Positions 14,879 through 63,996 of a stretch of DNA of 64,000 nt are shown here, piece after piece; within the stretch, counting starts at the first letter, position 1; each line of letters begins with the position of its first letter. Source of the DNA: Protoeuglena noctilucae (taxonomy: Eukaryota); assembly GCA_958009085.1 (NCBI GenBank), contig OY253689.1:310001-374000 (forward strand). The letters run 5' to 3'. The notes beneath the pieces are model-generated. The model was not told where the DNA came from and made no database searches. It worked only from the letters and a program-made list of their open reading frames with translations. Position numbers and translations under genes: made by a program.

Positions 14879-17279
14879 ATGGCGGCCGTGCAGCACCGGG
14901 ACTGGGCGTTCCTCTCCCACAGCGACGCTGAAAAGCACGCGGCCGCTCTCGATGTCTTATGCCGCAATGCGAAGCATTCCAGCCAAGCCCTGGACCTCGC
15001 GAGCAAGTGCAGCGATCTCTTCGACACGATCTCTTCGACACGGGAGGCAGACGGCAACATCGCGTACATCGATGCGGCAGGTGCGATGCTAGCCATCGCT
15101 GGCGTTTATAGTCAGTCTCCTCGGGCCGCAAACGCCCTGAGATGGATTCGGTGGCCGCAGAAGTGAGCATGGATGATTTCCATCGCCGATTCGCGGCGTC
15201 GCTGCGGCCGTGCATGATTCGCAACCTCGCGGAGCGACCAGACGGTCCCGGCAATTCACCCAATCCCTGGCCGGCGCTGTCTCGGTGGATGTCGCCCCAG
15301 GCCTTTGCCCAGCACCACGGCGACGTGCCTTTCCGTCTGACCGAGCTTGCTCCCCTCTTTGGTCTGGGCAAGCCGATGCCTATCCGCGTGCCGCTGGGCA
15401 TGTACATGGGTGAGGACTGCGAGCGATGGGGCTGCTAGCGATGACTGAGCTTGGGCTGTGTGGCTGGGCCAGCCCTGCGCCTGCCGTGATGGCTGTGGGC
15501 TGCGCTTGTGCTGCAACCCAACCCAACAGGCACCAACCTGTGCTGCTTCATCCTGTTGCCTGTGCAGAGTACTGCCAAGCGAATGCAGCCGACTATCCAT
15601 GGTATGCGTTTGGGGATGACTTTGAGGGGGAGCGGCGGGCTCTGCTGGAGGACTACTCGGTGCCTGCCATGTTCAGGTGAGACCTATGTATCATTCGATA
15701 GTTGATATGCGCGTTTGTCAATGCCTGCGATGTTCAGGTGACTTGGGCATCAATTGGGGGACTTTTTGACCCATGGCGGTGCCGGTGCCGGTGTTTCCTT
15801 TGCTGGTGGTGTTTGATAGGCACCTGTGGCACTGACTGTCAGTGCAACAGTCGCCAAGCCAGCCCTCCATGCCAGTCAGCATGCGCATTGACCCCAACCC
15901 ACTTGCAGAGACGATCTCTACGACGTGACGCCCGAAACGCGGGCCTCCTTCCCCCGCTTCCGTTACATGGTTATTGGGGGACCAAGGAGCGGGTCTAATA
16001 TGCACGTGGACCCTCGCTTTACATCCGCATGGAACACCCTACTGGTGCGTGTGGCAAGCGTGTGCATGACATGCATGTAGTTGACGCATGCTGTGTATGA
16101 TGTCACGTTTGCATGGGACACCCTCCTGGTGCGTGTGACAGGCATGCATATGTTGTACCCGTCGCATGCTGTGCGTGCCGTGCCTGCACCAAGGATGCCG
16201 GGAAGCCATGCCTGCTGTGCATATTGGGTTGGCCGTGCGACCAGACAGCACAGCTGACATCACATCCCCTGTCTCGCTTCTCTACCCTTGCCTGCCCTGC
16301 TGACCACAACTACTCAGCCCCGCTTCACGCAGTGTGGTCACAAGCGCTGGGTGCTGTTCCCGCCCGGTGATGACCCAGAGTACCTTGCGTCGATCGGAGT
16401 GCCTTGCGACGTGGGCGGGGAGGGCATGGGCAAGACAGCGGCGCCGCCCGCACAGTGGTGGCTTGACACGTACCCGCGCCTGAGGGCGGGCGAGGGGGCG
16501 CGGCTGGGCATGGTGGAGTGCCTGCAGCGACCGGGGGAGACCATCTTCGTACCCGTGGGTGCGTACAATACATGGCAGGGATATTACTTTTTACTGGTAT
16601 TGAAAGAGATACTTTCCGTGACTATATCGGGTCAGGGGTGGGTGTTCGCCCCTCATGCTCGCATCCTGTCGCTACGTACAGTCCTATGCCAGCTATTAAC
16701 GTCTCTTTCCTCGTGTTCGTTCACCCACAGGGTGGTGGCACGCGGTGCTAAACCTCGACGGCACGATTGCCGTGACGCAGAACGCCCTGCTCCCCGCCAC
16801 GCTGCCTGCGGTGTGGGCCAGCTTGCGATCGCGGTACCCCAGAGTGGCTGCCCACATCCGGAGGGCTGTGGAGGGGCGCGGGGAGGGGTGGGAGGGGGTA
16901 ACGTGGGAGGAGGTGTGGGAGGTGGTGGGGTCAGAGGAGGGTGCGGGGGACGAGGGGGGTGAAGGAGGGGAGGGGGACGATGAGGACATCGGTGAGTGGA
17001 GTAGAGGGCTTGGCTGGTTGTGAGGCGACGTGTCGACGTTGGGGAGGTGGTTGTGCAGATGACGCGCGTAGTTGAGCGACGGGGTTGCTGAGGATGTCAT
17101 GTTAGCCACGGTGCCTTGACTTGATAATCGATTCTATCGCAGCAAGTCACGCTTGTGCATCTAACCCTAACCCTTTGCCACCTGCAGTGGTGGTGGCGTC
17201 GCGCGTCGAGGCGGATGATGCGGACGGGGCGGTGGGCACGCCTGTGGTGCTGGCGGGGGGTCATGTGGTGTATGTCTGA
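14879..17279 (+). CDS. JmjC-domain 2-oxoglutarate oxygenase (JMJD6/JMJD4-like), multi-exon
   Basis: [19 protein letters not shown] (HxD), [45 protein letters not shown]. The last exon (17188-17279) is inferred from a GT donor at 16992 and a ctaac/cag acceptor. Confidence 0.88.
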
Positions 17280-17512
17280 CGGCTGATATCAGCTCGTGTG
17301 TATTTGACACGCTGGTAGGGGTGTCAAGTTGCGTATGTATGTCTCACATGACCCCCTTGGTGTAGTGAACTTCAAACAACAGCGATGCAAGGTTTGTTTG
17401 AATAGCATCGACGGATCGCGACAGGACAAGAGATGAACAACGTGCGGAGGGACAACATGCACAGCACACCATAGACCCTTGTGCACCAACAACACCACCC
17501 CACGTCACCATG

Positions 17513-20500
17513 TTACGGGAATTTGCCCAGGTGGTGCGTGTACAGATCCTCTGCCCCCACCTCATCCAAAGGCACCCTCGAAAGGAACGAACTCCGGCCG
17601 CCCTTCGACATCCCACGCTCCCTCGACCCCGCACCCTGACCCTGACCCACAGCCTGGGACATCGGCTGTGCGTCGCCCACTCTCGCGCGACGGGGGGCGT
17701 TGTGGGCGGCGCTGGGACCAGGGACGTTGCCCTCGCTGCGGCGAGAGGGGCGGTCGGTCGGGGCCCGCAGCATGTCTTGTGCGTCCCAGTTCTCCTTGTC
17801 CCCTGCGGGATATGGGAAGAACCATATGAGGGCAATGGTTCAGAGTTCTTGATGACAATGCGACTTCACAAGTTGTGGACTCGCTGCTTCGTGCACAGAT
17901 GCCGTGCTGTGCCAACACACGCGTGGGAGTCACAGTCCGCAAGACATGTGTGGGGTGTGTACCCCACGCAAGTCTCACCGTCAGGGCTGGCGGGGGTCGT
18001 TTGCGGGGTCAGGAAGCGCTCCGCGTTTGGTGGGGACGAGTCGGGGTGACTGGCGAGGGGAGTGTACGTCCCCGATGCACGGCGGGGCACGCCAATCGTC
18101 ATTATCGGCGTGGCTTCGGGCACGTTTACTGGCTGCGCGGGCGTCAGTAGACGCGGGGAGGGGCCGGGCTCGGCAGCTGCGCTGGCCTGCTGCAGATCCA
18201 CGGTGATGTCGCGGCGGGCACGCTGTGGGTGAAGGCGGGAGGGGTCGGTGTGGGGAGCGAGAGGGGAAAATCCACCTTCCAAGCATTGTTCGTTGTAAAC
18301 AGGAGAGCCCTGCCTTGCTGTGGCAGAGCAGGGCCGGAGGGGTTGACGTCTAGGTGGCCAAGGCCAGTCCTGGTGCTGAACAGAGCCATGCATAGCAGCA
18401 GCAGCATTGCATCTTAGTAAATGAGCTGGCATGCCCCGTCACCTGTCGCAGCTTGACTTCCGGCGGCGCCGTGCGCGCGGGCGGCTCCCCCCATGACAGC
18501 GCCCCGTCCAGCACCGCACACTCGCGCGCCACCCCCTCATTCCCATCACCACTGTCTCCACCGGGGCGCCCCGAGTCGAAATCGTACTCCGCGCCGCGCG
18601 AGGGCCCCACGGGGCGCGCCACGAAGGTCGGGGAGGGCGGGGCGGCACGGGTGGCTGTGCTTGAAGTACCGATGTTGGTGTTGCTGTTGGCGGTGCCCGC
18701 CTCCCCTTCGGCGTCCATCCTCTGCCGGTCGGCGCGGGCGCGGAAACTCAGCGCGCCGCCGTCACGGAAGGCGATGGGCACTGCGGGGGGGAACAGGAGG
18801 TGGTCGGGCGCTGACGCACGGGCCACACGGCACGAAGCACAAAGCACGACGACAGGACCGGGTGGCCCTGAGCGTGCTTGTGACACCCTATAAGAGCGCT
18901 CCTTAATACACTTATGCTTCCACTTCGCTACTAGTCCCAACAGTCCCTTCCCAGCGAACTCAGCCACTGGCGCTCACCCGGCTCCTCCTCCGCCCCTCGC
19001 ATGGACGGCGGCGTGTCCTGGGTGAGCCCCACCGCCGCCATCATGCGACCCAGCCGGTCGAGTCCTATCACGTCTGCGCCCCCGCGGCCCTCAGCGTCGG
19101 CATCCATCACGCCCTCGGGGTAGCGGGGCGGGGTGCGGACGTCGGGCAGCGGGCGCAGCACGCTCGCACGCGGGGGCGAGCCAACCACCTGGCGGGGTGG
19201 CAACGCGGTCACGGCCACCAGAGCCACGTCAGCAGCGGCCGCCGCAACATCGGCATCGTCGCCCGTCGCCCCGGCAGCTAGGTCGGCGTCGGTGTCGGTC
19301 TGTAGCGTGGGCACGCGCTCTGCGCTCTGTCGCTGCGAGGCATGGGGATCCGAGTCCCGGCTGCGGGTCAGGGGGTTGCCCCCGGAGCTGACGCTGGTCT
19401 TGAGGGCCTGCGGGGAAGAACGGGCGGGTGCTGGAAGGCCGGCAAGGAGCCAGCCAAGGGCGGGCAGGCAGGCAGAAGTCGGTATGGCAGTGTGGCAGTC
19501 GGAGTGACCTACGAATAGCGAGGTGGTCAGACAGCATTGCTGGGACGGTTTCAGGCATCTCATCGTTGCCGCCTGCCATCTCTTCTCACCTCCACCTCCC
19601 TCCGAAGCCTGGCCACCTGGGCCTCCCGCTCCCGCATCCTCTCACTCTCCTCTCTCGCCACCTGCGCTTCCCGCTCCCGCATTTTCTCGCTCTCCTCTCT
19701 CGCCACCCGAGCCTCCCGCTCCCGCATCCTGTCGCACTCTTCCTCCATGTCAGTGAATGCCAGGGACGGCTCGTAAACGGCCGAGGGAGCGCCGAACGCC
19801 GCCGGGGCCCTCAGGAGGGACTCCTCACGCGCTTGCTCGAGCTGTGGGGTGGGAACGTGATTGGTATTGAAAACTGGCATCGATCACGCACGCGGGGATG
19901 AGGCAGTGCCCTTCCCTTGTCACCCCATCACCGCTCATTCCCCCACCACCCCTCACCTGCAACGCCAGTCACCCCATCACCCCCTCACCTGCGACGCCAG
20001 TCGCCTCTTCTCCTCCCCGGCCGCCCCCAGCGCCCCCTGCAGCTCCTCCACCACCACCTGCCGCTGCCTCAGCTCACGCTCCAGTGCCGCCGCCCGCGAC
20101 CGCGCCCCCGCCAGCTCCTCCGCCAGCGCGCGCGCCTCCCTCTGGCTCTCCTCTAGCTGCGCCTCCAACGCAGCGACCTCCTCTGCAGCGGCGCGGTCGG
20201 CCTCCCTTGCACGCTGGTCGGCGTACAGGGCGCGCTCACGCAGCAGGCGGGCGCTCTTGAGCTGCGGGGGGGGAGAGTGGGTAGCAGGGGTGGTTGGGAC
20301 CCAGGACACTGGTGTTTTATCTGTAGCACGCAAATTGTGAGCTCAGCTCGTCTCTCTGGGCAACAACCTGGGGTCTGGACCCATGCATAGGCAGACCACA
20401 CAGCTCGTGGCCTGGGTATCACCTGGGCCAGCTCCGTGTCACGCAGCGCGGCGCGGGGGATGGCCCGCACTTCGTGAATCTCCCATCCCAGGGCCTTGGC

Positions 20501-20978
20501 CCACGCCACATTGACCAAACCATGCGTCGGGCACCGCTCCCAGCATTCCCACGCCCCGAAGTTGTAATTGGCCACGCGGTGAGGGAAAGAAGACTCACGG
20601 ACCGCCTGCAGGAAGCGCCCCTCCGCGCCGAGGGATCGGAAACCGTAGTAACGCGGATCCTTCGCCTCCACCGCGAAGAGGCAGGCAAGCGGGATGCACC
20701 GGACGCGCTGCGGGACAGAAAGAACGCTATGTGAGACGTATGTGATGCTCGCAGCCGCGTCGGGATCGTACGCCGCTCGCGCGGAGGGTTCGCACAATTC
20801 GTACCTTCACGGCCCCCTCCGGAGTCGCCGGCCCGTCCCCGTCCTCGACCGGGTAGAGCTGCCAGTACTTTCCCTCCTGACAGGCCTTGAGGAGTCGTCC
20901 GCTCTCGTCCCAGAACGTGACAATCGAGCCAGGCTGGAGGAGGGTCGCCCTGCTGACAATCGCGGCACCGGGCGCCAT
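17513..20978 (-). CDS. Uncharacterised multi-exon protein: aromatic N-terminal domain, central coiled coil, disordered C-terminus
   Basis: Chain of GT-AG-bounded ORFs: MAPGAAIVSRATLLQPGSIV.., YGFRSLGAEGRFLQA..NFGAWECW, LEAQLEESQREARALAEEL.., and 15-aa repeats REESE(K/R)MREREAQVA. No family confidently recognised; 3' end uncertain. Confidence 0.6.
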
Positions 20979-21718: not shown

Positions 21719-22364
21719 GGGGCCGCTGGCGGCGAGACCTTTAATCGCGCCTCGGCGGTGCTGGCGCGATACCGCGACTCCCTCCCCGCCCTCGTGGTCC
21801 TCGATTTAGACTACACGATCTGGCCATACTATTGCGAGACACAGTCCACGCGAGACGAGCCGGCCTTCTACCCAGACGTCCCTGGAATCGTCGCGGCCCT
21901 GTGAGATGAAGCGCGCTGCAGCTCGCCTCTCCTTGCACGGCCAGCCTCGTGCCCGAGTCGCTGCGGCTCGCCTCTCCTCGCACGCCAGCCCAGCACCCAC
22001 TGTAACCCCATCTCGCTCTTGCTCTCTCAGGAAGGCAGCGGGCGTCCCGATGGCCGTGGCCTCAAAGACGCCTCGCGGCGACATCGCCTCGGCGCTGCTG
22101 ACCAAGGCCCGCATGCTCGACGCATTCCACCCCTTCGTGGCCTTCTCCTCGCACGGCAAGACGCCCCACTTCGAGCAGATTCGAAGCGAGACGGGCGTGG
22201 CCCTTTCGGACATGCTCTTCTTCGACGACGAGCCACCCAACATCCGCACCATGGGCCGCGCGGGCGTCACGTGTGTGCTGGTTAAGAACGGCCTGGACGT
22301 GGCTGCGCTCGAGGAGGGGCTCCGAGCGCACGCCAAGAGCCGACTCGACAAGGCCGGCTTCTAG
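21719..22364 (+). CDS. MDP1: Magnesium-dependent phosphatase 1 (HAD family); 5' exon(s) upstream not resolved
   Basis: LPALVVLDLDYTIWPYYCE (DxD), MAVASKTP, KTPHFEQI, MLFFDDEPPNI, GVTCVLVKNG. Confidence 0.88.
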
Positions 22365-22499
22365 TCTAGTCTACCAGTCCGCAGCTCTGGGCCCTCAGCA
22401 AAGGAACAGTGCCCGTTTAGTCGTCAAGTGCCGGCAGCACGGGTGCACAGTGCCCTGTGCGCCTCCATGTGTGCCACTAGCCCTTAGCAGGCATTTAGG

Positions 22500-28147: not shown

Positions 28148-31100
28148 TCACTTGACCTCGACGGCCGTCTCCCCCGCTCCCCTCACAAAGTCCTTCACCA
28201 GCGCCACCAGCTTTGCCACCTGCCCCGGCTCATCGCTCTCGGCATTCAACACCAAGATGGGGTCATGGAGCGACTGCCTGCGACACAAACGGGGAGGCAG
28301 GGGGTGGGGGTGAGGATCTTCAACTTTGACAAGGATCATAGTACACTACATAGCACGTTGTCTCTGCCCCACCCACAGCACCTCAGCATTACCCACCCAC
28401 TCTCCCCCTCTCTCCAGTGTCTCACCTCAGCAGCACCGACCCACTCACCCCCACTCTCCACCGCCACCCCTCACCCCTCACCTCAGCAGCACCCACCCAC
28501 TCTCCACTCCCACCCCTCACCCCTCACCTCAGCAGCACCCACCCACTCTCCCCCACGTTGTACCTCCACCCCTCAAAATTCTCCGCCTCCAGCTCCCACC
28601 CCTCCTGCTGCGACGCCCACTGTTTGAAACGGTCCAGCACTCGCGCCCCAATCTCCTTGTATCGATCCAGATCGCTGCGAGAGAGGGAAGGTGGTTAGAG
28701 ATATGGTTGGCAATAGAACCATGTTTAAATGGTGATGAACCGTAGCCGCGTCATGCGTTGTTGCGGCAATCGGTAGCGAAGCCCATACATGCGCACGGTT
28801 ACTATGCAGTTACTGTACAGGTACTACCACACCATCCATGGCAGTTTGACAAACTGCCCTCACTTGATTTTGAATCGCACTTCCTGGCCTTCCAAAGGGT
28901 CCTGGAATCCCTTGAGGAGCTCTGCAAGCAGACGGCACAGAGAACGTGCTGTTGAATGGGCAGCTTCACTTACAGTATTGCACCACTTCATAGACAGCAC
29001 TGCACCCCACCACTGACACTGTCCCGCACCCCGCTCAGCCCACCATCCACCCCCTCACCACCACCACCTTGCCACCCACCCCTCACCACCTCCTCGTCAC
29101 CCACCCCCACCCACACCCTCTCACCCCCCACTACTCGCCTGGCAGCCCCGAGCCGGGCTTCTCCAGCCGCATGCGCACGAGCTTGATGAGGATCTTGACA
29201 GCCAGGTACGCCCCATCATCCAGGAAATAATTCTCCTTCATCGCCCCGTGACCGGACGTCTCGATCATCAGCTGGCAGTCCACGCCCTCTGCGTTAATCT
29301 CCATGCCTTTGGAAATGACGTTCTTGTAGCCCCGGCGGTAGCGGAGGTGGCGGCCGCCACGGTCCCTGGGGGGGGAAGGGAGGGTTAGGGTGTGGAGCGT
29401 GAGAGTTGCGGTGGGCGAGGGGGGGTGTGAGAAGCAGGGTGGGGAAATGAGGCGATGGGGCGCGGGGGTTGCGATGGGGGATGGTTGGTGAGAAGCAGGG
29501 TGGGTAAATGAGGTTGCGAGAGGTGCAAGGAAGGAAGTGGGATGGTGAGCGCGACGTCACCCCACTTACTGTAACGCTGAGTTAGTCTCCATTATCCTCC
29601 ACCATCACTCACTGTATGAACTGTGCCAGTCCCTTGGACGTCACCGAGTCCGTGACCACCGTCGACCCTGGGTGGTCCTCCAGCACAATCGCCGACAGCA
29701 CCGCGATCAGCCTGTTGCGGTTGATCTCCCTGCCATCGGGAGCCACCACAGCGCTGCGGTCCACGTCGGTGTCAAACACGATGCCCAGGTCGGCCTTAGC
29801 ACGAGCCACGGCCCCCGCTGCGCTCTGCATGGCTGTGGGGTCTTCGGGATTGGGCACATGGTTGGGGAAGGTGCCGTTGGGTTCGAGGAATTGGGAGCCA
29901 GTTGTGTCTGCGCCCAGGTCGGCCAGCATCGAGGCGAAGAAGCCGCCGGAGCCGTTGCCCGCGTCCACGACGACCTTCATGCCGCTGCGGGTGGGGGTGG
30001 GAGGGGTTGAAGGGGTGGGGATGAGGTGGAGAGTGGGGTAGGGGTGGAGAGGGTGGACAGGGTGGAGTGAGTAAGTGAGGGTGGAGTCAATGGTGTGTGG
30101 AGTGAGGTAGGGGTGGAAAGGGTGGAGTGAGTGAGTGTGAGTAGAGTCAACGGTAAGGTGTGGGAGTGAGGAGGCGACACCAAGGGATGGATGGTGCAGG
30201 TAGCGATCGACGGGCAGGGACAGTCACAGCACACGTAGCCTATCCTAACCCTGTGCATCACACGCACCCCATACCACTCAGCTGACCTGAGGGGCTTGGT
30301 GGGGTTGGTGGGGTGCTTGACCCCGTCCTGGATGAGCCTCTGCAGATGCCTCGCGTACGCCTCAAGCACGACTCCCTCTTGCTTGGACACCAGGGCACTC
30401 GACGTCTGCATGGCGCCCGTCAGCATGGCCGTCTGCAGGTCCAGGTCCTCGCTCAGGCCGTGCGGCTGCAGCGACGCGGCGGCGTCGCGGGCGGCGCCGT
30501 CCAGGATCGCCTGCGAGAGACGGGAGGTTGGGGGCTATGGTGAAGGTGGAGGGAAGAGCAATTGTGGAAGGATGAGCTGTGCCTGCAACCACATAAACAA
30601 ACGGCGACCCACTGGGACCTGCATCGTGCATTCCACCGTGTCTGTCGCTCGCCTTGATGTCGCCCTTGTCGAGCCCCCCCTCAGCGACGAAGAACTTGAG
30701 CCCGTTGCGGTTGTAGGGGAGGTGGGACGCGGTGGCCATCACGGCACCGTCGAACTTGAGGTCGGGCAGGATGGTGGACATGAACATCGCGGGGGTGGTG
30801 GACAGCCCCGCGTCGACGACCGACGCGCCGCGGGACGCGGCGCCGGCGGCAAAGGCGGCAACGATCGCCCCACCGGACACGCGAGGGTCGCTGCCCACGG
30901 CCACGCGGAGGCCCTCGGCGGGGAGCGCCAGGCGGCGGGAGAGCCAGTCCGCAAAGGAACGGCCGATGAAGTAGACCATCGTCGATGTCAGGGACACGGG
31001 CTCGCCCTGGATCCCTTCCACGGCCACGCCGCGGATGTCCGACCCGTTCTGCACCTTCGCGAAGCGCCTGGCCAGGTGCTCCGGCACCGGACTGCGGGGA

Positions 31101-33945: not shown

Positions 33946-36900
33946 ATGGAGGAGGAGGTTAACAGGGTGAGGCTGCCGGTGCGCTGGGAAGGCACCTGCT
34001 CGGTTTCCCGCCCAGCGCGCAACGGACCAGGGCGGGACGGCGATGCGGGACCCGTCCGGCCGCACCGGCGGGGCCTAGATGTAGATGTCACTGAGTCGTT
34101 TGCATAGCGCTCCCCAACCTTGACCCACGACCGCAGCTCGTCCCCCTAAGCTCGCTCCCTTGTGCCCCTCCTTTGCAGGATCATCCCTGCAATCCAATCC
34201 CGGAGGAGATCGTCCGACAGGGCTTCTGTCGTCCGAAACCAGCCGACCAGGTCCAAAGGCGACTCGATGTGCCCCGGGAGGAGCGTCAGCGGAGGTTGCT
34301 CGAGAAGGTGAGCAGGGCATCGTCTCTTGGCGCGATGGACAGGCCTAGAGCGGCGCTTGGTTGAGACAGGCCCACAAAGCATCGAGATGCCGCGCTCGCA
34401 GTCGGAGGAGCATGAAAGGGAGGAGGGCAAGCTCTTGATCGGCATCAAGGTGACGCTTTGCAATGCTTTGACGAGACAGCAGGGTGCAGGCAGATGTGGG
34501 AATGGCGCATGTTGGCGATCTTTTCAGCACTGGGCGCTGGCTGCCATGGGGATGTCATGCGTCATCACCCCGCAACACTGAGCGCCCGCCACAGCACCGC
34601 ACCGATGCAACACATGACGCCCCGCAGCAGCACCGCACTGTTGCAACACCGAGCGCCGCCCCTCAACAGCACCCCACCATTGCCCCCCCCCCCCCCCCCC
34701 CCCCCCCCGCAGCACTGGACTGTGCTGAAGGACGAGGAGCTCCCCGCGGGCCCCATGGACTGCGACCCCAACGTCCGATACCGCATCGTGCCTGTGGACA
34801 ACTACCCGGGGAGGCAGAAGGAGTTCCAGGTGAGTGGGGGTGGGAGTGGGAATGACGTTAGTGAAAGGCGACGAGAGGAGTTGGAGGTGAGTGGGAGAGA
34901 GAGGGGTGACGATGACTGTGTCTGTGAACGACTACCCGGGGCGGCAGAAGGAGTTCGAGGTGAGTGGGGGTGGGGATGATGACGGTGACTGTGCAATGCG
35001 ACGGGAGGAGGTGAGTGAGAGGGGGGATGACGACTGTACGATGCGACAGGCGAGCTCACTGTCACCCTCTCTGGCGCTCTCCACGCTCTCCCCTCACCCC
35101 TCACCCCTACACACTCCCATCACCCCCTCACCCCATCACCCTCCAAACCCCTCACCCCTCACTGCTCACCCCCCTCACTCCCCATTACCTCAGTACCTGA
35201 AAAAGCTAAAAGTCGACGTGTCCAAATACAAGGACTCTGAGGAGTGTGACGGAGAGGACGAGGGAGGTGTGGAGAACGAGGGTGATATGGAGAATGGGAA
35301 CGATATGGAGAATGGGAGAGATACGGAGAAAGGGGGGGATTACGAGGACGAGAGAGACGAGGAGAACGGCGTTGGCGAGGGGGTTGAGGTAGCTGTCACC
35401 AAGTCCAGCAAGACGCCCGAGGCGAAGGCGGCGCGGAAGAGGACGGCGGCCAAGGCCACGGCTGAGCCTGCGGGGGTGGGGAGGGCGGGATTGCCGCGGG
35501 AGGACGAGGGGAGGGGCAAAGGCAAGGGAAAGAGGAAGGGGGTACATGGAGATGATGGGCCTAGCAAGAAGAGGGGCAGCAGGGCGGGCGGTGGGAAGGG
35601 AGAGGAGAAGCAAAGCAAGAAGAGGGGCGGTGGGGAGGGTGGGAAGGAGGGAGAGGGATCGGGGAAGAAGCGGCGGGGCGGGGAGGGGGGCAAGGGGCGG
35701 AAGAGCGGGGGTGGTGTTGGGGCTGGGGGCGATGGGGAGGATGAGGAGGTGAGGGGGGGTGGGGTGGTGATAGGGGTTGGGGTGGGGAGGGGTGGGGAGG
35801 GGACGGGAAGGGGTAGTGAGTGGGAGTGAAGGGAGCAACAGGAGGAGTAGGTTAGCCCGCATGTATGCATGTGTGTCGCTGCGCAGTTACACACCTACAC
35901 CCACACCCACCCTCACCCCCACCTCATCTCATCTCACCCCCAGAACATCGACATCGAGAACGCCCCCGCCCCCCTGCTGTTCCCCAAGCCCGGGGAGGAG
36001 AAGCGGTTCGCTCGACTGAAGAACGACCCCTCTCGCCTGGCGCAGTGCCAGGAGTTCCGCAGGAAGTTCCTCGAGAAGTACCCAGAAGACTGGGTGTACT
36101 CGGAGGTGAGAAGGGAGACTGGTTACCTACAGAAAGTTAGTACTCAGAGCTGACCGTTTCTCTTCTAAACTTGTAACCACTACCCCTGCCCCTCCCCCTA
36201 GGGCGACCACTATTACTCAATAGTTTTTAATAGTTGGTAACTATAAAGTATCAACTACTGCCCCTGCCCCTCCCCCCAGGGCGACCACCGTTTGGAGGAC
36301 TTCTGGGAGCTGCCCTTCACGACTAATGACGACAACGGCGACTCGTTTCTGGCGGAGCGCATTGTGGACGAGGACACGAGGGAGGGGGGCGTCGAGGTTC
36401 CGGGTCAAGTTCTGGAAGTGGGAGGTGAGACGATGAGATTGTGACATGAGGCATCTGGTCAAGTTCTGGAAGGGGGAGGTGAGGGATGGGTGGTGCTGAG
36501 TGATGTTGGGTGATGGGGTGTCTGTGAATGGAAGTGGGAGGTGAGGCGTGGTGATGGGATGGATGGGGTGTATGTGACGAAGGCATGAGGAGTNNNNNNN
36601 NNNNNNNNNNNNNNNNNNNNNNNNNNNNNNNNNNNNNNNNNNNNNNNNNNNNNNNNNNNNNNNNNNNNNNNNNNNNNNNNNNNNNNNNNNNNNNNNNNNN
36701 NNNNNNNNNNNNNNNNNNNNNNNNNNNNNNNNNNNNNNNNNNNNNNNNNNNNNNNNNNNNNNNNNNNNNNNNNNNNNNNNNNNNNNNNNNNNNACACAAC
36801 CACCACCACCCCCTTTCCCAGCTCGAGCCCTCGTGGCTGCCCAACCCACCCCTCACCCCTTACACCCCACCCACCCCCCCCCCAACCCACCCCTCACACC

Positions 36901-37079
36901 TTACACCCCCCCCACCCCCCCCCCCCCACCCATCCCTCACCCCCCCTTCCCAGCTCGAGCCCTTGTGGCTCCCCGAGGAGACTTTGACTGAAGATCAGTT
37001 GCGGAATTGGTACGACGAGGACAAGGAGGAGCTGAAGAGGTGGAGGAGGGAGAAGAGGAAGGCGGAGAGGAAGCAGTGA
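33946..37079 (+). CDS. Uncharacterised multi-exon protein with acidic and Lys/Gly-rich regions and a C-terminal chromodomain-like segment (apparent 1-nt frameshift near 36384-36389)
   Basis: Ordered GT-AG exons; FLAERIVDED..FRVKFWKWE|LEPLWLPEETL resembles the chromodomain pattern. The gene spans the assembly gap. Confidence 0.55.
36594..36793. other. Assembly gap (200 N), within an intron
   Basis: Run of N between G-rich and C-rich intronic sequence. Confidence 1.
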
Positions 37080-37938
37080 GGGGGCGGAGAGGGGTGGGGG
37101 TGAATGGGGGTGATGGTGGGGGTGGGGTGATGGGGGTGATGGGGGTGGGGGTGGGGAGTGAAGCGGTGGAGGAGGGAGGAGAATAAGCAGTGAGGATGGT
37201 GGTGATCAGGAGCGCAAGCAGGGAGGGGTGGGGTGGATTGGAATGGGGGTCGCTGTGATGGGGAGCACAGGCAGTGGTAGGTGGGATGGATGGCAGGTTG
37301 GGGGTGACGAGTGGGTGGGGAAGTGGGCGTGGAAGCGTGGATCTGGGGAGTGGTTGTTTATGTGAATAGGCAGGAGGGCCAGTGCCACTTGCCGCCTGCC
37401 ACATCGCGATCGGCAGGCCCATGAGCACTATGCCCCCTGTCACGGCACGTTGTTAGCTTCCCTTTTCTTTGACTGTAGGCACGGGGATCCCTGTAGCCCT
37501 CTCTTTTGCCATTCGCGGCGAGTCATGCACCGCTTGCCAAGCTCCGGCAGCTCCTGTTTCATGCGGCGGCGGTGTCAGGGATTGAAAGGCACGCGGCAGC
37601 GCCCACGGCAGCCCCACATGTGCGGGGTGAATGCGGCTAGAATTTCGCTAGCCACCCGCTTGCCCTTAGTAGGCCAAATAACGCAGCTACTGCCATGCCA
37701 CTGCTGCCATCTCAGCGCCCCTACACCCCTATGGGCCTCCCCCCCCCACCTCCATAACCTCCCCCACCCCCTCCAATGCCAAGCATAACCCCCCCAAACA
37801 CATCCCACATCGCCACCCGTGACCCTTCCCATCCTCAAGCCCCCGCGGGCCTCCCCCCCCACCTCAGGCCCCAACCCCCACCCCCCATCACCCCCTTCCC
37901 CCATCACCAAACGCAACAACTGTATACCCTCCCCGTCC

Positions 37939-40500
37939 CTACGCCCCCACGGGCCTCCCCCCCCCCACCTCCGTGGCCTCCCCGAACGCCACCACATCCA
38001 CATACTTAGCCACCACGGTCCTCCCATCGAAAATGCGACCATCGATGCCCTTTCGTGCCTTGTCGGCGGCATCTATCGTGTCGAACTGCATGTACACTTT
38101 GCCGTAGTGTCCCTTGCCGTAAAATTCATCCAAGTCCTCGGGGCGGGGGCGGGGGGCCACGACGGACACAACGCGGCCGGCCTCCTCGCAGATGCGGTTG
38201 CACTCCTCTTTGGCGTCGAGGAGCAGGTCCTTGTACTGTGTGTGGGGAGAGGGGGTAAGGGGTTGTTACTGTGAGTGGGTGAGGGAGCGAGGGAGCGAGT
38301 GAGTGAGTGAGTGGGTGAGTGAGTGAGTGAGTGAGCAAGTGGCAGATGCGGTTGCACTCCCACTCACCATCTCATCATCCGCCAGGTCGTTCTTAGACGC
38401 CATGTTCTCCAGGCGCAGGTAGTAGCTGCGCGTCCCGGCCGGCTGACCGTCCGCCGCCTTCTCCACCTCAGCCGTGCGAAGGCGCTCGGCCTCCTGGCGA
38501 CGGTACTCGTCAATGTCCACGCCCTGGGAAGTGAGTGAGTGGGAGGGGGTGAATGGTGAGTGAGTGGGGGTGAGTGAAGCGTTTGTTGCCTGCTCCCTCA
38601 GCCTCGCAGCTCCCCATTCAACACCCACCCACTCCCCTGGTCAAACAGCCTCAGGTCCTCCTCCGCCCTCCTCACCCTAACCCCACCTACTCCACCCACC
38701 CAACTCGCCTGGTCAAATAGCCTCGCAACTCCCCATCTAGCCCCCACTCCCACTCAACTCACCTGGTCGAACAGCCTCAGGTCCTCCTCGGCCCTCCTCA
38801 GCTCCTCCAGCTGCTTGTTGGGGTCGACCCACCCCGACGGCCGCCCAATCGACAGCGGGCTGCCCATCAGCTCCACCCCGTTCAGATGCAGCGCCGTGGT
38901 GGCCATCGTCGCGTTGCGGAACTCCACGAACGCGTACTTGCCCTCCGTGTGCATGTTGATGTTCTTGACGGCCTCGTTGCCAGGAACTGACGTTTCAGGA
39001 AACGCCTTGGCGAGAGAGGCGTTGAAGAGCTCGCGTAGGTGGTGCGGCTGCACCTGCCCGATCGCGAGGTTGCCCACGTAGATTTCCCGCTGCTTGATGC
39101 CTGACGTGAGGGTCTCCCAGATGCGCTCGCCCGAAAAGCTCGCGTTGGGGCCGGCGATCTGGGGGGAGGAGAGGGTGGGGCGGGTTGCTTGGGTGGGTGC
39201 GGGTGCGAGCACGCACCTGCTACTTCCCCAGCCCCAGTCTCACCACAAGCTGCACCCCTGCACCTGCTTCATCCTCAGCTCTCATAAGCTTCACCTCCCC
39301 TCGACAGCCACCCCCATCCACACCCACCTGCTTCTCCATTAGCTCTCAACATGCACCTGCTCATTCTCCATCTCACTCATCCCCCACCCACCTGCTTCTT
39401 CATCAGCTCGAGCCTCGCCACCAGCTGCGCCCTCCTCTGCTGCCGCTGCTTTTCTTTAGGGTCCATCGCCCGCACCGCCGCCGTCTTGGCACGCAAGTGC
39501 GCAAAGGGGTCGGTCAGAACCTGGGGGGTGCGGATGGGGGCGGCGCCCGAGCGCCTGCGGGGGCGGGAGATGCGGAAGAGGGTGTCGCGATCACACAGGG
39601 GTGCTTGAGGTGTCACCGGGGTCTACGGGTGTGTGTGGGGGCAGTGGTTCAGGTGAGCACCTGGGCAAGCACGGGAAGGGAGAGCGGTGGCTGTGACGAG
39701 CGCAGCGAAAGGCAGAGTAGCTGTTGTAGCGATGAACATAGCACGACAGTTACCTGGGACTGGGGGACCGGCGGCGCTCGTAGCCCCGGCCGTCGTGGCG
39801 GTCCCGGTAGCTGCGGTCACTACGGTCGCGCTCCCGGTCGCGGTAGCTCCTGTCGCGGTCCCTGCCCCGGTCCCGATCTCTGTCCCTCTCACGGTCTCGA
39901 TCCCTGTCCCTCTCGCGGTCCCTCTCCCTGTCCCGGTCTCTCTCCCGATCCCTGCTGCGCTCCCGCTCCCGGTCACGGCTGCTGCCCCGCCCGTCCCTCC
40001 CCGCCTTCGCGGCGTCGTCATCCCTGGAAGCGCAGACGGAAAGAGAAAAGCTGAGCAGCCCGCGAGGAGCTTGTGAAAAAGCACGGAGACGGCGAGAGGG
40101 CCATCACGCAGCGCGGGCGACGGAAGCAAGCACCTCTTCGGCTGATCCGCGTGGCTGGGGGCGGCCGGCGCCGGAGGGAGACTCGAACCTTCTCCTGCGC
40201 CCGTCGGCGCTGTCGCCTGCGGCAGCGGGGCCCGGTATCGCCGGGGAAGCGGTTGCGAGCGGGAGCACGTCGTGCCGACTCTCACCGCGAACTCAGCAAA
40301 CGAACGCCTTGCCACCATTGCATTTGTCTCAATTAGCAGCGAACCATGTAGCAAAGCCTCCGCACCAAAGCCCGGACGACGCGGGCAGGGGTGCGTCACC
40401 CGCCCGCAGCGATGGGCAGCGCGCCTGGACAGCCCGGTGCGATGTATGGCATCCGTGGGACGCACCTGATCTCCGTCTGGCGTCATCGCCCCCCTCTCAT
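37939..40500 (-). CDS. U2AF large subunit (U2AF65)-like splicing factor: RD/RE-rich N-terminus, RRM1, UHM (3' end uncertain)
   Basis: RDRERERSRDRERD repeats; REIYVGNL..KYAFVEFR..ALHLNGVELMGSPLSIGRPSGW; LRLENMASKNDLADDEMYKDLLLDAKEEC..GKVYMQF..GRIFDGRTVVAKY. Confidence 0.85.
38295..38335. repeat. (GAGT)n intronic microsatellite
   Basis: gagtgagtgagtgagtgggtgagtgagt... Confidence 0.85.
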
Positions 40501-58008: not shown

Positions 58009-58324
58009 GGCGCGTAGAAGCGCTGATAGTGCAGTTCGCGAGCGCAGAAGAGATTTATTTGAATTGCGCGCTGCTCACTTGCGCGAGAAACGGCTGAAGA
58101 GGGACGAGTCGGACGTGCAGCCCGGCAGCCCGGGCCTGACAGGTCGCGCGGGTCGTTGGTCTCGGCCACTCTCTCGCGCGCTCGGTTGTCGACATCCTCC
58201 CTTAACGCACTGTAGAAGCGACGAGCTGCAGGGCGTTCTCTGGTGCTTCCTGCGCGACGCAAGGCATCTCTGCGCTGCGCCATCCGCATGGCAGCCGCTC
58301 TCAGGTCTGCGCTGCAGCAACCGT

Positions 58325-61225
58325 ATGGGTGAAGGTTTATCGGACGTGCTCGGCCTGGCCAGGCCGCACGGCGCTGGGATGATGCAGCAGGTCTCGGCAG
58401 GCCTGCACGGCGTGCAGGACGGGGTCCAGAAGTTTTTCAGGCGAGTGACACTTGAGTCATCCATCGATGCGCTCTGCCGAGGGTCTCTGCGTCGCGATCG
58501 AGGGAGGCGGACGGGGCCGAGGGTGCGACTGGGGTACGGGGCCCCCGCGCCTCGCGCCGGTCGCGCCCTCGCCCGAGCGCAGGTCGTGCATGTAGTATGC
58601 ACGGTACCTAATCAATGCGATGCGCCCGGGCGGCATCCGCGTTGCGGCGAGCCCCCTGCCCCGCCCTTGTTGCGCGCAGGCGGTTGAGCACGCGCCTGCG
58701 CGCCACGGTGGGCGGAGGCGCGGCCCGCGGGGGAGCGAAGAAGGGCGGCAAGGAGTTCCGCGAGGATGCGGGCATGTCGGAGCTGCATTTCGGCGGCACG
58801 CTGCTCTTCGGCGTCCTCGTCTGGCTCGTGTCGGGTGAGGCGCAGCTCGGGCGCCCCTTTCTCGCCGAATCTCCTTTTGATTCGCCCGCGATGCACGCGC
58901 AACCTCGCCCTCTCTTCTCCGACGCGACTTTCATGCCAAACCAACGACCCCGCGTCCCTCCACTGCCGCTCCGCATCACACATGCCCCGCCAACCTCCCC
59001 GTAAAAAACGAGTTCGCATTTCCCGCGTCGCCTTGACAACCCTTATACTCCGCACCTCGTCGCTGTCCTCGCAGCCCTCCCCGGCGCGCTGCCCCTCTTC
59101 TACCTGGTCTACTGCGCGGTGGCCTTGCCGATGCGCGCCGTCAAGTACGTCCGCATTAAGTGGGGTTTCTTCCTCTTCGACTTCTGCTACCTCGTCAACG
59201 CCGTCTGCATCGTCCACCTCGCGTTCTTCCCCCGGGAGCCCAGGCTGGCTGCCTTCGCCCACATGCTCGCCGATGGTCCCGTGGCAGGGGCCATCATCGT
59301 GTGGAGGACCTCGTGGGTCTTCTCGTCGCCAGAGCACGTCATCTCCGGTGAGCGTGGGATGGAAAGGGGTGGTGTGGGCTGCGGCTGTCTGCTTGGCTCG
59401 GCTTGTAATGATTCACTTGGCTCACCATACCCGTCTCACCCACTCTCAACCCCACTGCCACCCACTCACCCAACTCTCTCTCACCCCGCTCTCACCCCCC
59501 AGTCATGATCCACATGCTCCCCCCCCTCTCACCCACTCACTGTCACCCACCCACCCCTCCTCACCCCTCCCCAGTCATGATCCACATGCTTCCCGGCCTC
59601 GCCCTGATGGCCAACCGCATGGCCGGCGGCCCCAAGGGACTCTGGGAGGCCACCGTGTCCCTCCGGCAGCTCGCGGGTTCAATCCTCGCCGGCGCCCCTT
59701 TGGCGGGCCTCAAGGATTTCCTCTCCCAGTTCTCCTCCCCGCCTCCCCCCGAGACCTGGCACCTGACAGCGACGGACGCGTTTCTGTGGAAGGCAGCTGC
59801 TCCCATTGCCTTTTATGTGGCGTGGCAGGTCGCGTATTGGTTCGTGGTGCAAGTGGCCCTCATCGACCTCTTCCGCAAGAACAAGGCGTACCAGGTGATT
59901 GGTAGATGGAGATGGGTGACCAACTGGGGAGATGCGATGGCGTGATGGGGGGGAGGGGGGCAAGGCCTACCAGGTGACGGGTAGATGGAAATGTGATTCA
60001 TGAATAGTTACATGGATAGATGCATGGATAGATGCATGGAAGATACGACGTGGAGATAGATGGATACATGGAGATCGAGATGTATGGATACGTCGGTTGC
60101 TAGAAGGCAGGGAATGCTGCTAGAGCAAGCGAGGCGTGAGACAGGTGAGATGCATGGAAAGATGGGGGTGGTGGGGTGAGGGAGTTGCGATGGTGTTGAT
60201 GGGGCAAGCGTGCCTGGTCAGCATGTGGGGTGGGGCGAGGGAGGTGGGGCGCATCGTGACGCACTAAAAAGGAGTGTCCCATGAAAGGGTCCTTTCAACG
60301 GACACTTCTTTTCAGTGACGTGCGATGTACCCCACTCACCAACCCCCCCCACACTCCACTCAACCCCTCAGACCCCTCTCCCCCCACTCACCTCCCCCCA
60401 CTCACCCCCTCACTCACCCCACTCACCCCTCACCCCCCTCTCACCCCCCTCACCCCCCCACTCACCCCCAGACTTCCTTCAAGTGGCTGACGGCCCGCAA
60501 GAACTCCTGGGTGATCCGTCAAGTGAACCGCGGCAAGCCCCGAAGGCGCATCGTCATGTTCGGTCTGGTTCAGTTCACCTACACCCTCTTCGCCTATGCG
60601 CTCGTCTATCCCTTGTATCCGTCGTTCTATCGACTCGCGGGGTGGCAGGCAATCAAGGCCGGGTTTGCGCTGTGGTACGGGGCGCAGTACCAATGCGAGG
60701 CGATACCCAAGGTGATGAGGGGAATGTGATGTGCTGTGATGCAGTGACAGCGAGAGAAACGTGCTGTGGCGCACTGCAGTGCGCTTTTCTCAACCCCTTA
60801 CCGCACCCCCCATTCCCAGAAGATCCACCGCCGTGCCTTGGCTGGCTACGACCGTGTCATGGCAGACATCGGCACGCAGGAGCTCAACAGCATGGCCACG
60901 TCCGTCAGCCCCGTGGTGGAGGCGGCGGTGCTGGACGCGGCGTTCGTGCACCCGGGGGAGACGGACGGGTGGTTCGATGCGGATGAGGTGGTGGGGGGGG
61001 AGGTGAGGGGTGGGGGTGTTGTGATGAGTGGGGTGGGGTGTGATGGGTGGGGTGGTGGTGGTTGTGAGGGGTGGTTCGACGCCGAAGAGGTGGGGGGGGT
61101 GGAGGTGAGGGTGGGGAGGAGTAGAGATGAGGTGTTTGATGTGAGTGGACATGTGATTGGATGCCGATGAGGTGGCTGCCGACTGCCTACCATTGCCCTG
61201 TTCCCAGGACGTGAAGACGGAGTGA
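58325..61225 (+). CDS. GPC1: Glycerophosphocholine acyltransferase (Gpc1/DUF2838 family)
   Basis: WGFFLFDFCYLVN, GPVAGAIIVWRTSWVFSS..ISVMIHMLP, YQTSFKWL; several transmembrane segments. Confidence 0.85.
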
Positions 61226-61827
61226 GAGTCCCTTAGAGTCGATCTGTCTGCCAAACGGACCTGGTCACCACCGGAGTGAAGACACGGTGCGTTTTGCAGG
61301 CACCCGCTCTGCAGTGCAGTGCAGTGCAGTGCTGTGCTGTGCTGTGCTCCGCGCCTGCCGTGAGCTCGGCGACGGTTGGCAGCGCCCGACTACCCTAACC
61401 CTCCCTTTTTTCATAAACTGAAACGGAATTGCACCGCCACGGGGCCTTGCGTGGGCCTCCCAACGTCCCACCATGCGGCTCTTGGGGCGAGACTTTGATT
61501 TGGACTTCGCTTTTGCCGACGCTGTCCAGGGGCTGACTATCTTTTGCCCGTACTATCGCCTGGATGACATCGCCTATGCCATGACGCGCCCAACGCAAAC
61601 CCCCTCTCGCTTTCCCACTTGCTTTTTGAACGACTTACTATCGCCTGCCGTTCTCACTCGCTGGCGAAAGCTTATCCACACAGACTCCATGGCGCAAGTG
61701 TCACAATGCCGAAGTCTTCATCACGCAAATGTCGATCACACACCAATCGGGCCAGCTGCTTAGCCCTTCACGCACTCGGCCCGCATCGACTCTGCAATAG
61801 CAGCAACAGCTGCCCAGCCACAGCTGC

Positions 61828-63996
61828 CTACCCCTTCACGCACTCGGCCCGCATCATCTCTGCGATGGCCGCGTGCCTCATTGCCGCCTCCTCCCCCATC
61901 TCCGCTGGCAGTGCCCTGGGCATGCCGATCGCCTCGGCCATGAAACTCGCAGACACGCAGCCCCACACCATGGCGTCCTGAGAGAAGGGTCAGCATGGAG
62001 AGGGAGATATACACAGAGATAAGCGGAACGAGATACATGGAGCAAAGACGGAGCCCCACACCACGGCGTCCTGCGAAGGGTCAGCACGGAGAGAGGTGGA
62101 GAGATGCAACGAGTGGTCAGGGTGTGTGGCGGGGGTGCCACGGATGCACGAATGGGTGCGTGTCAGCAGAGGAACTCGCTTGTAAGAAGAGCGAAGTGCA
62201 GGGTGCCCGGTGCATGGTGTATGCGTTCGCTATGCTAACACTATGCTACCCCTCGCCCCAACACCACCCACCAAACCACCCCCCCCAACACACCCCCCTC
62301 ACCTCCACCCACGCTCGCCGGTCGCCCGCCCCTGTCGCCCCCCCCCGCACTCTCCCCGCCCCCGTTAGTCTTGCCAGAAACCCACCGTTGAAGGCGTTGC
62401 CGCATCCCGTCACGTCCCTCACCACCGTGCGAGGGTAGGCGGGGACATGGATGGGGCGTGGCAGGCCGTGCCATGACGCTGTGGATGTAGAGAGGGGTGA
62501 GAACTGAGTGAAGAAGAGTGAGAGAGCAGGCGGGTTGGGGTGGGGTGAGAGAGTGGTGAGAATGCAGGCGTAGGACGTGGATGGGGCGTGGCAGGCCGTG
62601 CCATGACGCTGTGGATGTAGAGAGGGGTGAGTGTGGGAAGAGTGAGACAGCAGGCGGGCAGGAAGGGGTGAGAGGGCAAGTGATACTGAGATGGGAGGGA
62701 GTACTGAGAAGGACGGCAATCACAATGAGCTGACCCACCCCCACATGCAGCCCCCACGCAATGCAATGCCCGTCACCTGCTGCCCCGTCCGCCCCCCTCC
62801 TGAGCACCACGACGGGCCCCCCCCTGCCCCCCAGCTCCACCAGCTGCCCCACCACGTCACGCCACGACACGTCGGTGCCTCCCTCCAGCACTGTCCTTGC
62901 TTCGTACTCGTTGGGCGAGAAGACATCGCAGGTGCTTAAGAGGGCGCGGAGGGCGTCGGGGGATGCCTGGGGGGGTCAGGGGGTGAGTGGAGATGGGGCG
63001 GGGGATGCGTATGTTACGCATGGTATCTGTGTGTGTGTTAAGCATGTCAGCTTGATAATTGTTTGACTGGGAACCACCCTCACCAGCCATGCCAGCCTTG
63101 CCAGCTCTCATATGCCCCGTCACTGTCACTACTCTCTCACCGGCTTCTCCGCGCTGGTGTAGGTTTCAATCGACAACGTCGCCCCCGACGCCCGCGTCAT
63201 CTCCCGCAACTCCCGCAGGGCCTCGAGCGGAGGGCTGGTCGGGTGCACGCCCACGTGCACGCACTTGGCCCCGCGCAGCGACGCCGGCAGCGACGCGGGC
63301 GCCGGCAGCAGCATCCGCAGCAGGTCGGGAGTCGGGTCCGTGCGCCACACCTGCGTGCGCTTGCCGTCGCTCTCGAACACCTGCGGCGGCGAGAAGGTAG
63401 ATAATAATCATTGGCGTCGCAGGGAGGCGCAGCGACGCGCCGGGAGGTGCCGGGCGCGGGTGCAGTGCGTGGCAAGATGGAGCGAGATGGCGCATCGATC
63501 GCAGCGGACCTGCCAGGCGCGGGGTGTGCGCGCGGAAGGATTCTTCTGCAGACCGATGAGGGAGCAGCCCAGGGAACGCAGCGCGGCCTCGCAGTCGCGC
63601 GGGAGGTCGTCCCCAACGCCCGCGACTAGCTCCGCCGTGGCGTCACCGCCCGCGGCCACTTGAAACCCGTACTGCGGGGGACGGACTAGTGCACGTCGAC
63701 GCGTCGCGTCGTCGGACCGGCCAGCGGAAGCGAGCGGTCCCGGCGCAGGGAGGGCGACTCACGATGACTTGCGGCCCGCCCCCGCCGAGCATCCCCATCG
63801 CCGTGACGCCGTCCGGCAGCACGATGTCGTCGATAATGAGTGTGAACGTCAGGAGATCGGGTCCGGTGGATGCTGCCGCACGTGATGTGAAGAGCTGGCC
63901 TTTCCGGCCTGTGGGATGCAGGCCCGATGGCCACCCGAACTCGGCACCCCGGGGCGCGAGGGAGCGCAGATGGCGCGCCAAAGAGATGACGCGCAT
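61828..63996 (-). CDS. pfkB/ribokinase-family carbohydrate kinase with a probable organellar transit peptide
   Basis: IIDDIVLPDG..LGGGGPQ, AGVGDDL, TPRAWQVFESDG, FSPNE, VRDVTGCGNAFNGGFL (pfkB signature 2), WGCVSASFMAE. Confidence 0.9.

Follow-up and report, generated by a model that had tools for sequence, protein, structure and literature searches.

By analogy, the closest known counterpart of the sequences described here is a minisatellite in intron 7 of the human F7 gene, in which the first of the 37-bp units spans the boundary between exon 7 and the intron (Borensztajn et al. 2006, PMC1557585). According to that study, the pseudo-sites of intron 7 (IVS7) stay silent, as the site lying furthest upstream is the one selected (PMC1557585). 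A related arrangement was found in Protoeuglena noctilucae, in a stretch of 64,000 nucleotides (nt) of DNA (GenBank assembly GCA_958009085.1, contig OY253689.1, positions 310,001 to 374,000 of the forward strand), which is hereafter called the window and whose first letter is position 1. Introns in this window carry direct copies of their own exon-intron junctions, and these copies are referred to as echoes. An initial annotation of the window had offered several readings of them, ranging from a mutational process targeted to splice junctions to ordinary tandem duplications that persist where they span a junction. Window-rate, position and stop-codon tests favoured the latter, and the echoes probably arose through pervasive small tandem duplication combined with a selection filter and a fast turnover of low-complexity spacers.

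As described for F7 IVS7, the copies are arranged directly and head to tail, and the first unit holds the exon end and the splice site; this was the case at all 14 junctions identified. The F7 layout as reported, a real donor followed by pseudo-sites, was reproduced by an array in a PGM/PMM gene (28377-28575) and by the intron 39159-39391 of an RRM/U2AF-like gene. The echo sites also matched the authentic sites in sequence and strength, as the F7 pseudo-sites are reported to do, with mean scores of 8.4/8.3 bits for donor/acceptor echoes against 9.4/8.6 bits for the real sites and a median of about -5 for the intronic background. In addition, the upstream-most donor was used in two U2AF-like introns according to the contigs of three RNA runs, in which rare isoforms are lost. 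Unlike the F7 case, which is presented as one locus with near-identical units, the window contains 14 such junctions per 64 kb, acceptor and stop-codon versions, units of varied sizes and ages, and diverged spacers.

A second related system is intron gain or sliding in which an exon segment containing an AGGT proto-splice site is duplicated in tandem (review PMC3443670; Drosophila PMC2891723). Both that model, as outlined in these sources, and the echoes involve a small tandem genomic duplication within a gene in which duplicated splice signals leave the message intact. The model as outlined predicts that the intron start equals the next exon start and that the spacing equals the intron length, while the introns considered here pre-existed and lacked this signature. 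Flanks at intron-length spacing matched on average at 14.1 of 53 positions in 126 introns and at 14.2 in 15750 mismatched donor/acceptor pairs, with a maximum of 23 that lay under the control's 99.9th percentile; thus, intron birth by tandem duplication was rejected. The literature reportedly also lists an experimental case of intron gain by this route. Of intron growth and intron gain, both of which had been proposed initially, only growth was borne out, as introns with duplicates had a median length of 236 nt compared with 120 nt for the others (p=7e-7).

Intronic minisatellites in general resemble the echoes in several respects: the copies are direct, arrays grow, duplications are nested and unequal exchange leaves a mosaic of identity. 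The echo-bearing introns also carry many short-period arrays. The units described here differ from such minisatellites in holding exon sequence and splice signals of working strength. Introner elements, reportedly described by Gozashti et al. in 2022, are said to be mobile sequences that create introns, and they likewise represent repeated intron-associated sequence in marine algae. Unlike introners, which form families across many genes, each echo matched its own junction only: no mobile-element family was detected, each junction window reached its best score in its own intron, above those in all 122 others, and the only cross-intron repeat families were low-complexity C-rich or G-rich runs. 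No description of junction echoes as a genome-wide or frequent feature of an algal genome was found in the open-access literature.

All tests were confined to the one 64-kb window and to gene models built within it. The window has a G+C content of about 65% and a single 200-N gap at 36594-36793, which is spanned by a contig of DNA run X7 with about 123 letters. Three RNA runs (X1-X3) and X7, as Logan contigs, were compared with 19500-39499. Fifteen of the 38 joints obtained were listed; one of the 15 came from the DNA run only, and the remaining 14 correspond to introns in three genes on the minus strand, namely, PGM/PMM, Sec13-like WD40 and RRM/U2AF-like (Pfam). The RNA contigs lose rare isoforms, and RNA cover was low or nil over parts of 19500-39499. 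The base at 36384 was missing from all four runs, including the DNA, and the window possibly has a one-base error there. The gene finder, a small hidden Markov model trained inside the window, replaced a noisy composition-only exon calling. It recovered 14/14 verified introns, all of which were in its training set, and this recovery is hence no independent check; an independent check was provided by five RNA contig ends that lay within 3 nt of predicted junctions (22031, 22822/22823, 25496/25498, 26596/26598 and 27528/27531). After the removal of antisense shadow models, guided by Pfam matches on single exons, 26 genes were kept, with 129 introns of median length 129 nt (103 GT-AG and 26 GC-AG).

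After ambiguous cuts were resolved, GC-AG borders were present in 4/14 RNA-verified introns (28922-29138, 30511-30652, 32548-32700 and 33389-33474), besides the 26/129 predicted; the proportion given for Emiliania huxleyi in PMC4028052 is approximately 56-60%, and this species, which the GC-AG borders and intronic repeats had at first suggested as the source, was set aside for that reason and for want of a close NCBI protein. For pelagophytes, fewer than one intron per gene is stated in bioRxiv 10.1101/2024.10.30.620910, on which ground they too were discarded. In the 123 predicted introns of at least 60 nt without N, the sense strand shows a steady G-to-C skew gradient that starts at +0.42 (first tenth) and falls to about -0.35 over the final two tenths. 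G-rich intron starts were partially complementary to the C-rich ends of their own intron or of an adjacent one, as at 60168-60203 and 60426-60461 and at 36906-36945 and 37115-37154.

The initial annotation had reported at least 14 junctions in seven genes with 1-3 extra copies each, and examination against the gene models yielded 14 junctions in the same number of genes. Ten donors carried 17 echoes and four acceptors carried four, with 1-3 echoes per junction, and 13/129 predicted introns held a copy of their own junction. The ungapped cores were 20-59 nt long and the spacings were 32-184 nt. As had also been stated, donor echoes lay downstream and acceptor echoes upstream, every one of them within the intron (14/14 junctions). 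The two donors of the U2AF-like gene were placed by RNA, and the other 12 junctions were placed by the gene finder, open frames and, for pfkB, Pfam continuity; the last GPC1 donor (~60987) and the junctions of the so-called chromo-like gene are the least certain.

The JmjC-like gene (plus strand) has two such donors. At 15676/15677 (15661..15741), placed by the gene finder and an open frame, the core 15661-15680 was echoed at 15722-15741, 61 nt downstream, with its GT kept; at 16044/16045 (16027..16137), the echo of the core 16027-16053 lies 84 nt downstream at 16111-16137; the 9-mer site is the same in both, and 69/84 nt of the unit can be aligned. In the coiled-coil gene (minus strand), the single donor 19989/19988 (19949..20002) has a core at 19981-20002 and an echo at 19949-19970, 32 nt into the intron, which Tandem Repeats Finder reported as period 32 with 2.0 copies. 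A 45-nt array of three units at 19609-19743 (minus strand) in this gene has a donor-like CAG/GTGG in each unit and could therefore be a donor array; RNA cover there was near zero. The predicted donor 28528/28527 of the PGM/PMM gene (28377..28575, minus strand) is crossed by the first unit of an array of ~46-nt units, with echoes at 28477-28529, 28421-28473 and 28377-28429. This donor is not among the 15 of 38 RNA joints listed, and its copy number is uncertain, as the X7 contigs break inside the array.

Two donors and one acceptor belong to the unnamed gene called chromo-like (plus strand). A 130-nt unit including 42 nt of exon surrounds the donor 34829/34830 (34788..35025), with an echo at 34918-34974 and a shorter inner echo within the unit. 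The donor 36424/36425 (36394..36545), for which the gene finder chose 36417/36418, has echoes at 36448-36483 and 36510-36545, and the acceptor 36953/36954 (36809..36974) has its core at 36941-36974 and its echo at 36809-36842, 132 nt upstream and right after the N gap. In the RRM/U2AF-like gene (minus strand), the donor 38763/38762 (38628..38800) was followed by echoes at 38695-38724, where GT has become GC, and at 38631-38674, which includes 38 nt of exon and where GT has become GG. After the donor 39392/39391 (39210..39432), the GT is kept in each of the three echoes (39321-39345, 39261-39281 and 39210-39257). For both introns, the RNA contigs of X1-X3 join at the upstream-most donor copy (joints 38522>38762, cut +1, and 39158>39392), and the echoes lie inside the removed part.

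The DUF2838/GPC1-like gene (plus strand) has one acceptor and two donors with echoes. The acceptor 59574/59575 (59497..59594) combines a core at 59569-59594 with an echo at 59497-59522, 72 nt upstream, in which the AG is kept. The core 59882-59914 of the donor 59894/59895 (59882..59993) was repeated at 59961-59993, and a 12-nt array follows at 59995-60044. At the last donor, ~60987/60988 (60963..61175), where the model is uncertain, echoes lie at 61065-61116 and 61147-61175, and the first was read as coding by the gene finder. When the DUF2838 exon was used as a query for full-length homologues, no match among longer proteins was obtained. Both echo-bearing junctions of the pfkB gene (minus strand) are acceptors. 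The acceptor 61978/61977 (61955..62093) has a core at 61955-61980 and 61984-62002 and an echo at 62048-62093, approximately 93 nt upstream in the gene direction. For the acceptor 62479/62478 (62443..62702), the core 62443-62501 and the echo 62573-62631 were identical at 58/59 positions; a second conserved block was present at 62513-62534 and 62637-62658, and the low-complexity stretches between differ by insertions and deletions (indels). The exons flanking this intron match positions 175-232 and 241-270 of the Pfam PfkB profile, which leaves no room for an insertion, and the 130-nt unit is thus not coding.

An ungapped diagonal scan (spacing 20-300 nt, score of at least 16, complexity filter) returned 24 short-range direct pairs in the window and 0, 0 and 0 in three block shuffles, and in 15000-63000 a repeat finder listed 51 direct families whose copies lie no more than 250 nt from each other. 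The ungapped scan returned 0 inverted short-range pairs, and templated insertion or template switching was rejected on this ground. The repeat finder's 12 inverted pairs were at most 83% complementary and consisted of G-rich against C-rich arms and short overlapping palindromes. Whole-unit tandem duplications were plain in several cases. Units of 130 nt lie at 34788-35025 and 62443-62702, one of 84 nt at 16027, several of 46 nt at 28377-28575 and one of 32 nt at 19949, and the alignable spans were 69/84, ~96-108/130, 98/130, 46/46 and 32/32 nt. Nested events were seen in the introns 38524-38762, 39159-39391 and 34830-35193, in which shorter inner echoes stand between the junction and an older echo with a longer exon tail.

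The strongly diverged spacers noted initially were also recovered. Matches amounted to 293/319 columns on the exon side, 104/132 in the splice-site zone and 404/785 in the rest of the unit, or 383/625 in the last once the pair beside the N gap was left out. By eye, from the alignments and without a script, the substitution divergence of the alignable intron side was approximately 1-3 times that of the exon side; the remaining difference consisted mostly of indels in G-rich or C-rich low-complexity stretches and of later insertions, such as the 12-nt array right after the GPC1 donor echo. The exon part of the echoes varied between 13 and 42 nt and made up roughly half of the alignable span, as estimated from printed spans without a script. 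No echo ended at a splicing-defined position, and within the copies the junction is bordered at each side by genomic sequence in unspliced form.

Exon-side mismatches were found at 23/312 positions, 22 of them with known phase. The excess at third codon positions proposed in the initial annotation was present in weaker form (10/22, p=0.16 against one third), and the mismatches were not mostly synonymous, as had been thought, since 11 were synonymous and 11 non-synonymous. Both figures are consistent with one free copy plus one constrained copy, and the earlier tally of 17/32 fits that situation as well (p=0.19 against 0.44, a rough estimate).

As splice sites, the echoes are largely intact, which agrees with the earlier remark that many keep their GT or AG. 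Among donor echoes, 15/17 have GT, one has GC and one GG, and 4/4 acceptor echoes have AG; a usable GT, GC or AG is therefore kept at 20/21 sites. The suggestion that they are retained decoys held in part: the echoes are intact potential decoy sites, and their retention exceeded one expectation (p=0.004, splice-site zone) and agreed with another (p=0.34, exon side). Acceptor echoes are more puzzling than donor echoes because an equally strong upstream site must be skipped.

Whether junctions are special was assessed with the 30 exon nt beside each junction of 123 introns, for which a match in the own intron had to beat those in the other 122 introns and to score at least 24. A specific copy in the own intron was obtained for 11/246 junction-adjacent exon windows (8 donors and 3 acceptors). 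The same test applied to 30-nt tiles inside introns gave 51/544, or 36/544, in 14 introns, without short-period tiles and with the copy at least 30 nt away. These values were compared with a simulation in which tandem duplications were placed uniformly, with the observed spacings and intron lengths, and only message-preserving ones were kept. In the simulation, 58% of the kept duplications straddled a junction by at least 12 nt, and the junction share of positive windows was 0.176, compared with an observed share of 11/62 = 0.177 (p=0.54) or 11/47 = 0.234 (p=0.19). The start of the second copy along the intron was also compatible with a uniform distribution (Kolmogorov-Smirnov p=0.30, n=20).

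Duplications away from splice junctions were also evident. Stop-codon echoes were found at 2/26 stop boundaries, compared with 14/258 splice junctions (p=0.65). In the U2AF-like gene (37719..37965, minus strand), the coding end with its stop, placed from the translation (37926-37965), was copied into the 3' untranslated region (UTR) at 37822-37860 and 37719-37747, and in pfkB (61753..61863, minus strand) the coding end and stop codon at 61821-61863 recurred at 61753-61795, 68 nt downstream. A purely intronic direct duplicate with a spacing of 45 lies at 21914..21984 (plus strand), and others lie at 22829-22936, 29427-29513 and 30051-30170 (minus strand) and at 34585-34649 and 43608-43668 (plus strand). 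An exact 19-nt copy of exon interior was found as well (38188..38360, minus strand): its source, 38188-38206, lies 30 nt inside the next exon, and its copy, 38342-38360, is near the 5' end of the upstream intron, the RNA-verified 38236-38367, so that no junction is spanned. This intron is largely a (TCAC)n-type run in the sense direction. Tandem-array periods were multiples of 3 in 27/37 exonic arrays, compared with 13/31 intronic and 7/23 intergenic arrays (20/54 together, p=0.001), and 6/6 exon-exon pairs had a spacing divisible by 3, which points to one mutational process seen through a selection filter. Two metagenome contigs with 55% identity to the U2AF-like exon had no short-range repeats, and their 5.2 kb are too little sequence to bear weight.

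Taken together, these observations suggest the following course of events. Small head-to-tail duplications, whose units originally measured some tens of bases, would arise all along the genome by slippage or unequal exchange, and selection would remove those that change the message. The survivors would be wholly intronic duplicates, in-frame exonic duplicates and duplicates straddling a splice junction or a stop codon. Where either boundary is straddled, the additional copy would come to lie in the intron or the 3' UTR, and the message would be unchanged while the outer site is used. Because the introns are short (median 129 nt) and the units are 30-130 nt long, the geometry implies that about half of the tolerated duplications would straddle a junction. 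The exon tail and core splice signal of the working copy would be held by selection, and just one copy would drift there, while the rest of the unit, which is G-rich or C-rich and of low complexity, would change quickly through indels, array growth and nested duplications. The peak of similarity at the junction, visible in the counts above, could thus be explained by selection on the working copy together with a fast turnover of the rest of the unit. What was observed are the copies with their direct orientation and spread, the use of the upstream-most donor in two introns and the intact echo sites; how the duplications arise, that selection filters them and that spacers turn over fast is what we infer.

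Several observations weigh against this explanation. In the strict complexity-filtered list, 13 junction events stood against 4 intronic ones, with 7.2 expected (p=0.003). A looser filter gave 13 junction and 6 intronic events plus one exon-to-intron copy, and a gapped scan gave 11 and 11 (p=0.21), the intronic part being hand-assembled with some rough spacings. The strict list was given less weight because its filter discards C-rich and G-rich intron sequence and because junction events are easier to see, their exon half being complex and one copy being constrained. Accordingly, we tentatively ascribe the excess to this filter, together with slower decay of exon-side sequence. The exon share of the spacing was also short, with a mean of 0.30 and a maximum of 0.52, and 0/20000 uniform simulations reached so low a mean. 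The original units may have been short, as is suggested by the spacings of 35-61 nt in young pairs lying wholly within introns, and the spacing of older junction events may have been inflated later by nested duplication and array growth. Alternatively, selection against long exon-derived echoes acting as pseudo-exons could account for the short exon parts. Some units are mosaic in identity, and in pfkB a block of 58/59 beside stretches of ~70% exceeds the twofold rate difference of the simple model and calls for hypermutable spacers, conversion or unequal exchange. GT or AG was kept at 19/21 echo sites, above the 0.62 expected from splice-site-zone identity (p=0.004) and not above the 0.84 expected from exon-side identity (p=0.34). 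Finally, the evidence comes from a single window with its own gene models, in which only 14 introns are RNA-verified and all of these were used in training the finder, and the event lists for the share and position tests were partly hand-assembled, with rough spacings for some intronic pairs.

Among the rival explanations, a mutational process aimed at splice junctions, whether splicing-coupled, RNA-templated or caused by break-prone G-rich intron starts, is improbable. It would account for the excess in the strict list, for the short exon parts with copies near junctions and, as the skew gradient from +0.42 to -0.35 could focus breaks near intron ends, for a concentration there. However, the window rates and boundary positions fit uniform placement, and the same copies occur at stop codons, inside introns and inside exons, so that the targeted process offered by the initial annotation as one of its readings was not upheld. 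The variable lengths of the exon parts, which have no fixed end point, the unspliced genomic sequence on either side of the copied junctions and the lack of inverted copies also argue against it. That the echoes are an assembly artefact, with collapsed or expanded repeats or haplotypes, is extremely improbable. The N gap adjoins one echo, the X7 contigs are interrupted at the PMM array as well as at further low-complexity runs, and the missing base at 36384 shows that the window may contain an error. Yet the k-mer assembly of the DNA reproduced 8/14 junction echoes without difference, a ninth, the PMM array, being at a contig break. The X7 contigs cover 19500-28493, 28522-34671, 34723-38269 and 38344-39499, including the echo-bearing stretches, with 0 other letters, and break at low-complexity runs. 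With regard to copy-number variation among individuals, no unit indel was among the differences listed between 19500-39499 and runs X1-X3 and X7; the DNA runs, of one organism label, probably represent one sample. Of the sampled words of 56000-63000, 0.99 were present in the DNA runs X5-X8 (one organism label, possibly the same sample as the assembly) and 0.34-0.42 in three marine metatranscriptome runs. Moreover, the copies differ by substitutions, which is not expected from simple collapse or expansion.

It is unlikely that the echo sites are kept by selection or by recurrent gene conversion from the working junction, with possible roles as decoys, alternative sites or extra U1/U2AF landing pads defining short GC-rich introns. 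The near-complete set of GT, GC and AG dinucleotides, echo scores close to those of real sites and far above the background, the mosaic identity with near-identical cores in pfkB and the PMM array, and retention beyond the splice-site-zone expectation all speak for it. Against this, retention matches the exon-side expectation, the exon-derived part is preserved as well as the site, which a site-specific function would not need, and half of the exon-side changes are non-synonymous. Only the real donors were used in the two verified introns, as far as RNA contigs, in which rare isoforms are invisible, and the 15 of 38 joints listed can tell, and stop-codon echoes look alike without any splice role. 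A related proposal, that the spliceosome takes the first donor and the last acceptor by a strict rule of position, or that conversion or selection maintains the copies as extra binding sites defining short GC-rich introns, appears rather doubtful. That some echoes are really part of the coding sequence, forming in-frame repeats or alternative ends of exons in places where the gene model errs, is very improbable. In its favour, the gene finder called exon at 61065-61104, in the first echo of the GPC1 3' end, whose spacing of 102 is in frame, the 45-nt array at 19609-19743 in the coiled-coil gene is in frame and was called exon, and 7/14 first-echo spacings are multiples of 3 (p=0.15). On the other hand, the echoes were spliced out in both RNA-verified cases, the continuity of the pfkB profile leaves no room for the 130-nt unit, the majority of spacings are out of frame, and non-synonymous changes equal synonymous ones in number. 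The features of mutually exclusive exons were likewise lacking, as the echoes hold one exon end only, 11/22 exon-side changes are non-synonymous and 7/14 spacings are in frame; in the test for duplicated exons, the GPC1 3' end and the 19609-19743 array were ambiguous.

Some other features of the window are recorded here. A kinase-WD40 gene (plus strand) contains recent in-frame coding repeats at 6753-7081 and 6511-6668, comprising a 126-nt WD40 unit in 2.6 copies with 96% identity and an 18/54-nt array. Two similar adjacent gene models (~7910-9800 and ~9911-11323) in 7125-11323 (minus strand) could represent tandemly arranged genes of an unknown family, and no exon of the gene models in that interval had a Pfam match at E<=0.01. 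The Sec13-like exon showed 100% and 99% identity to metagenome proteins only, and its nearest named relative, at 54%, was in an MMETSP transcriptome labelled Stichococcus sp. RCC1054, a green alga, which suggests a marine protist resembling green algae.

In this genome, small tandem duplications would lengthen introns and seed full-strength decoy splice sites. This calls for caution in gene finding, as an echo may be picked over the real site, which our own finder did at one 3' end. If the explanation by ordinary tandem duplication holds, the finding mainly describes this genome and adds no new mechanism of mutation or intron origin. If instead a positional splice rule operates or the copies are maintained, the genome would amount to a natural experiment on the choice of splice sites at many loci, and junction-spanning duplication would be a main route of intron growth in the lineage. 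The echo loci are natural test cases for the choice of the spliceosome among identical sites, which has so far been studied at single loci such as human F7.

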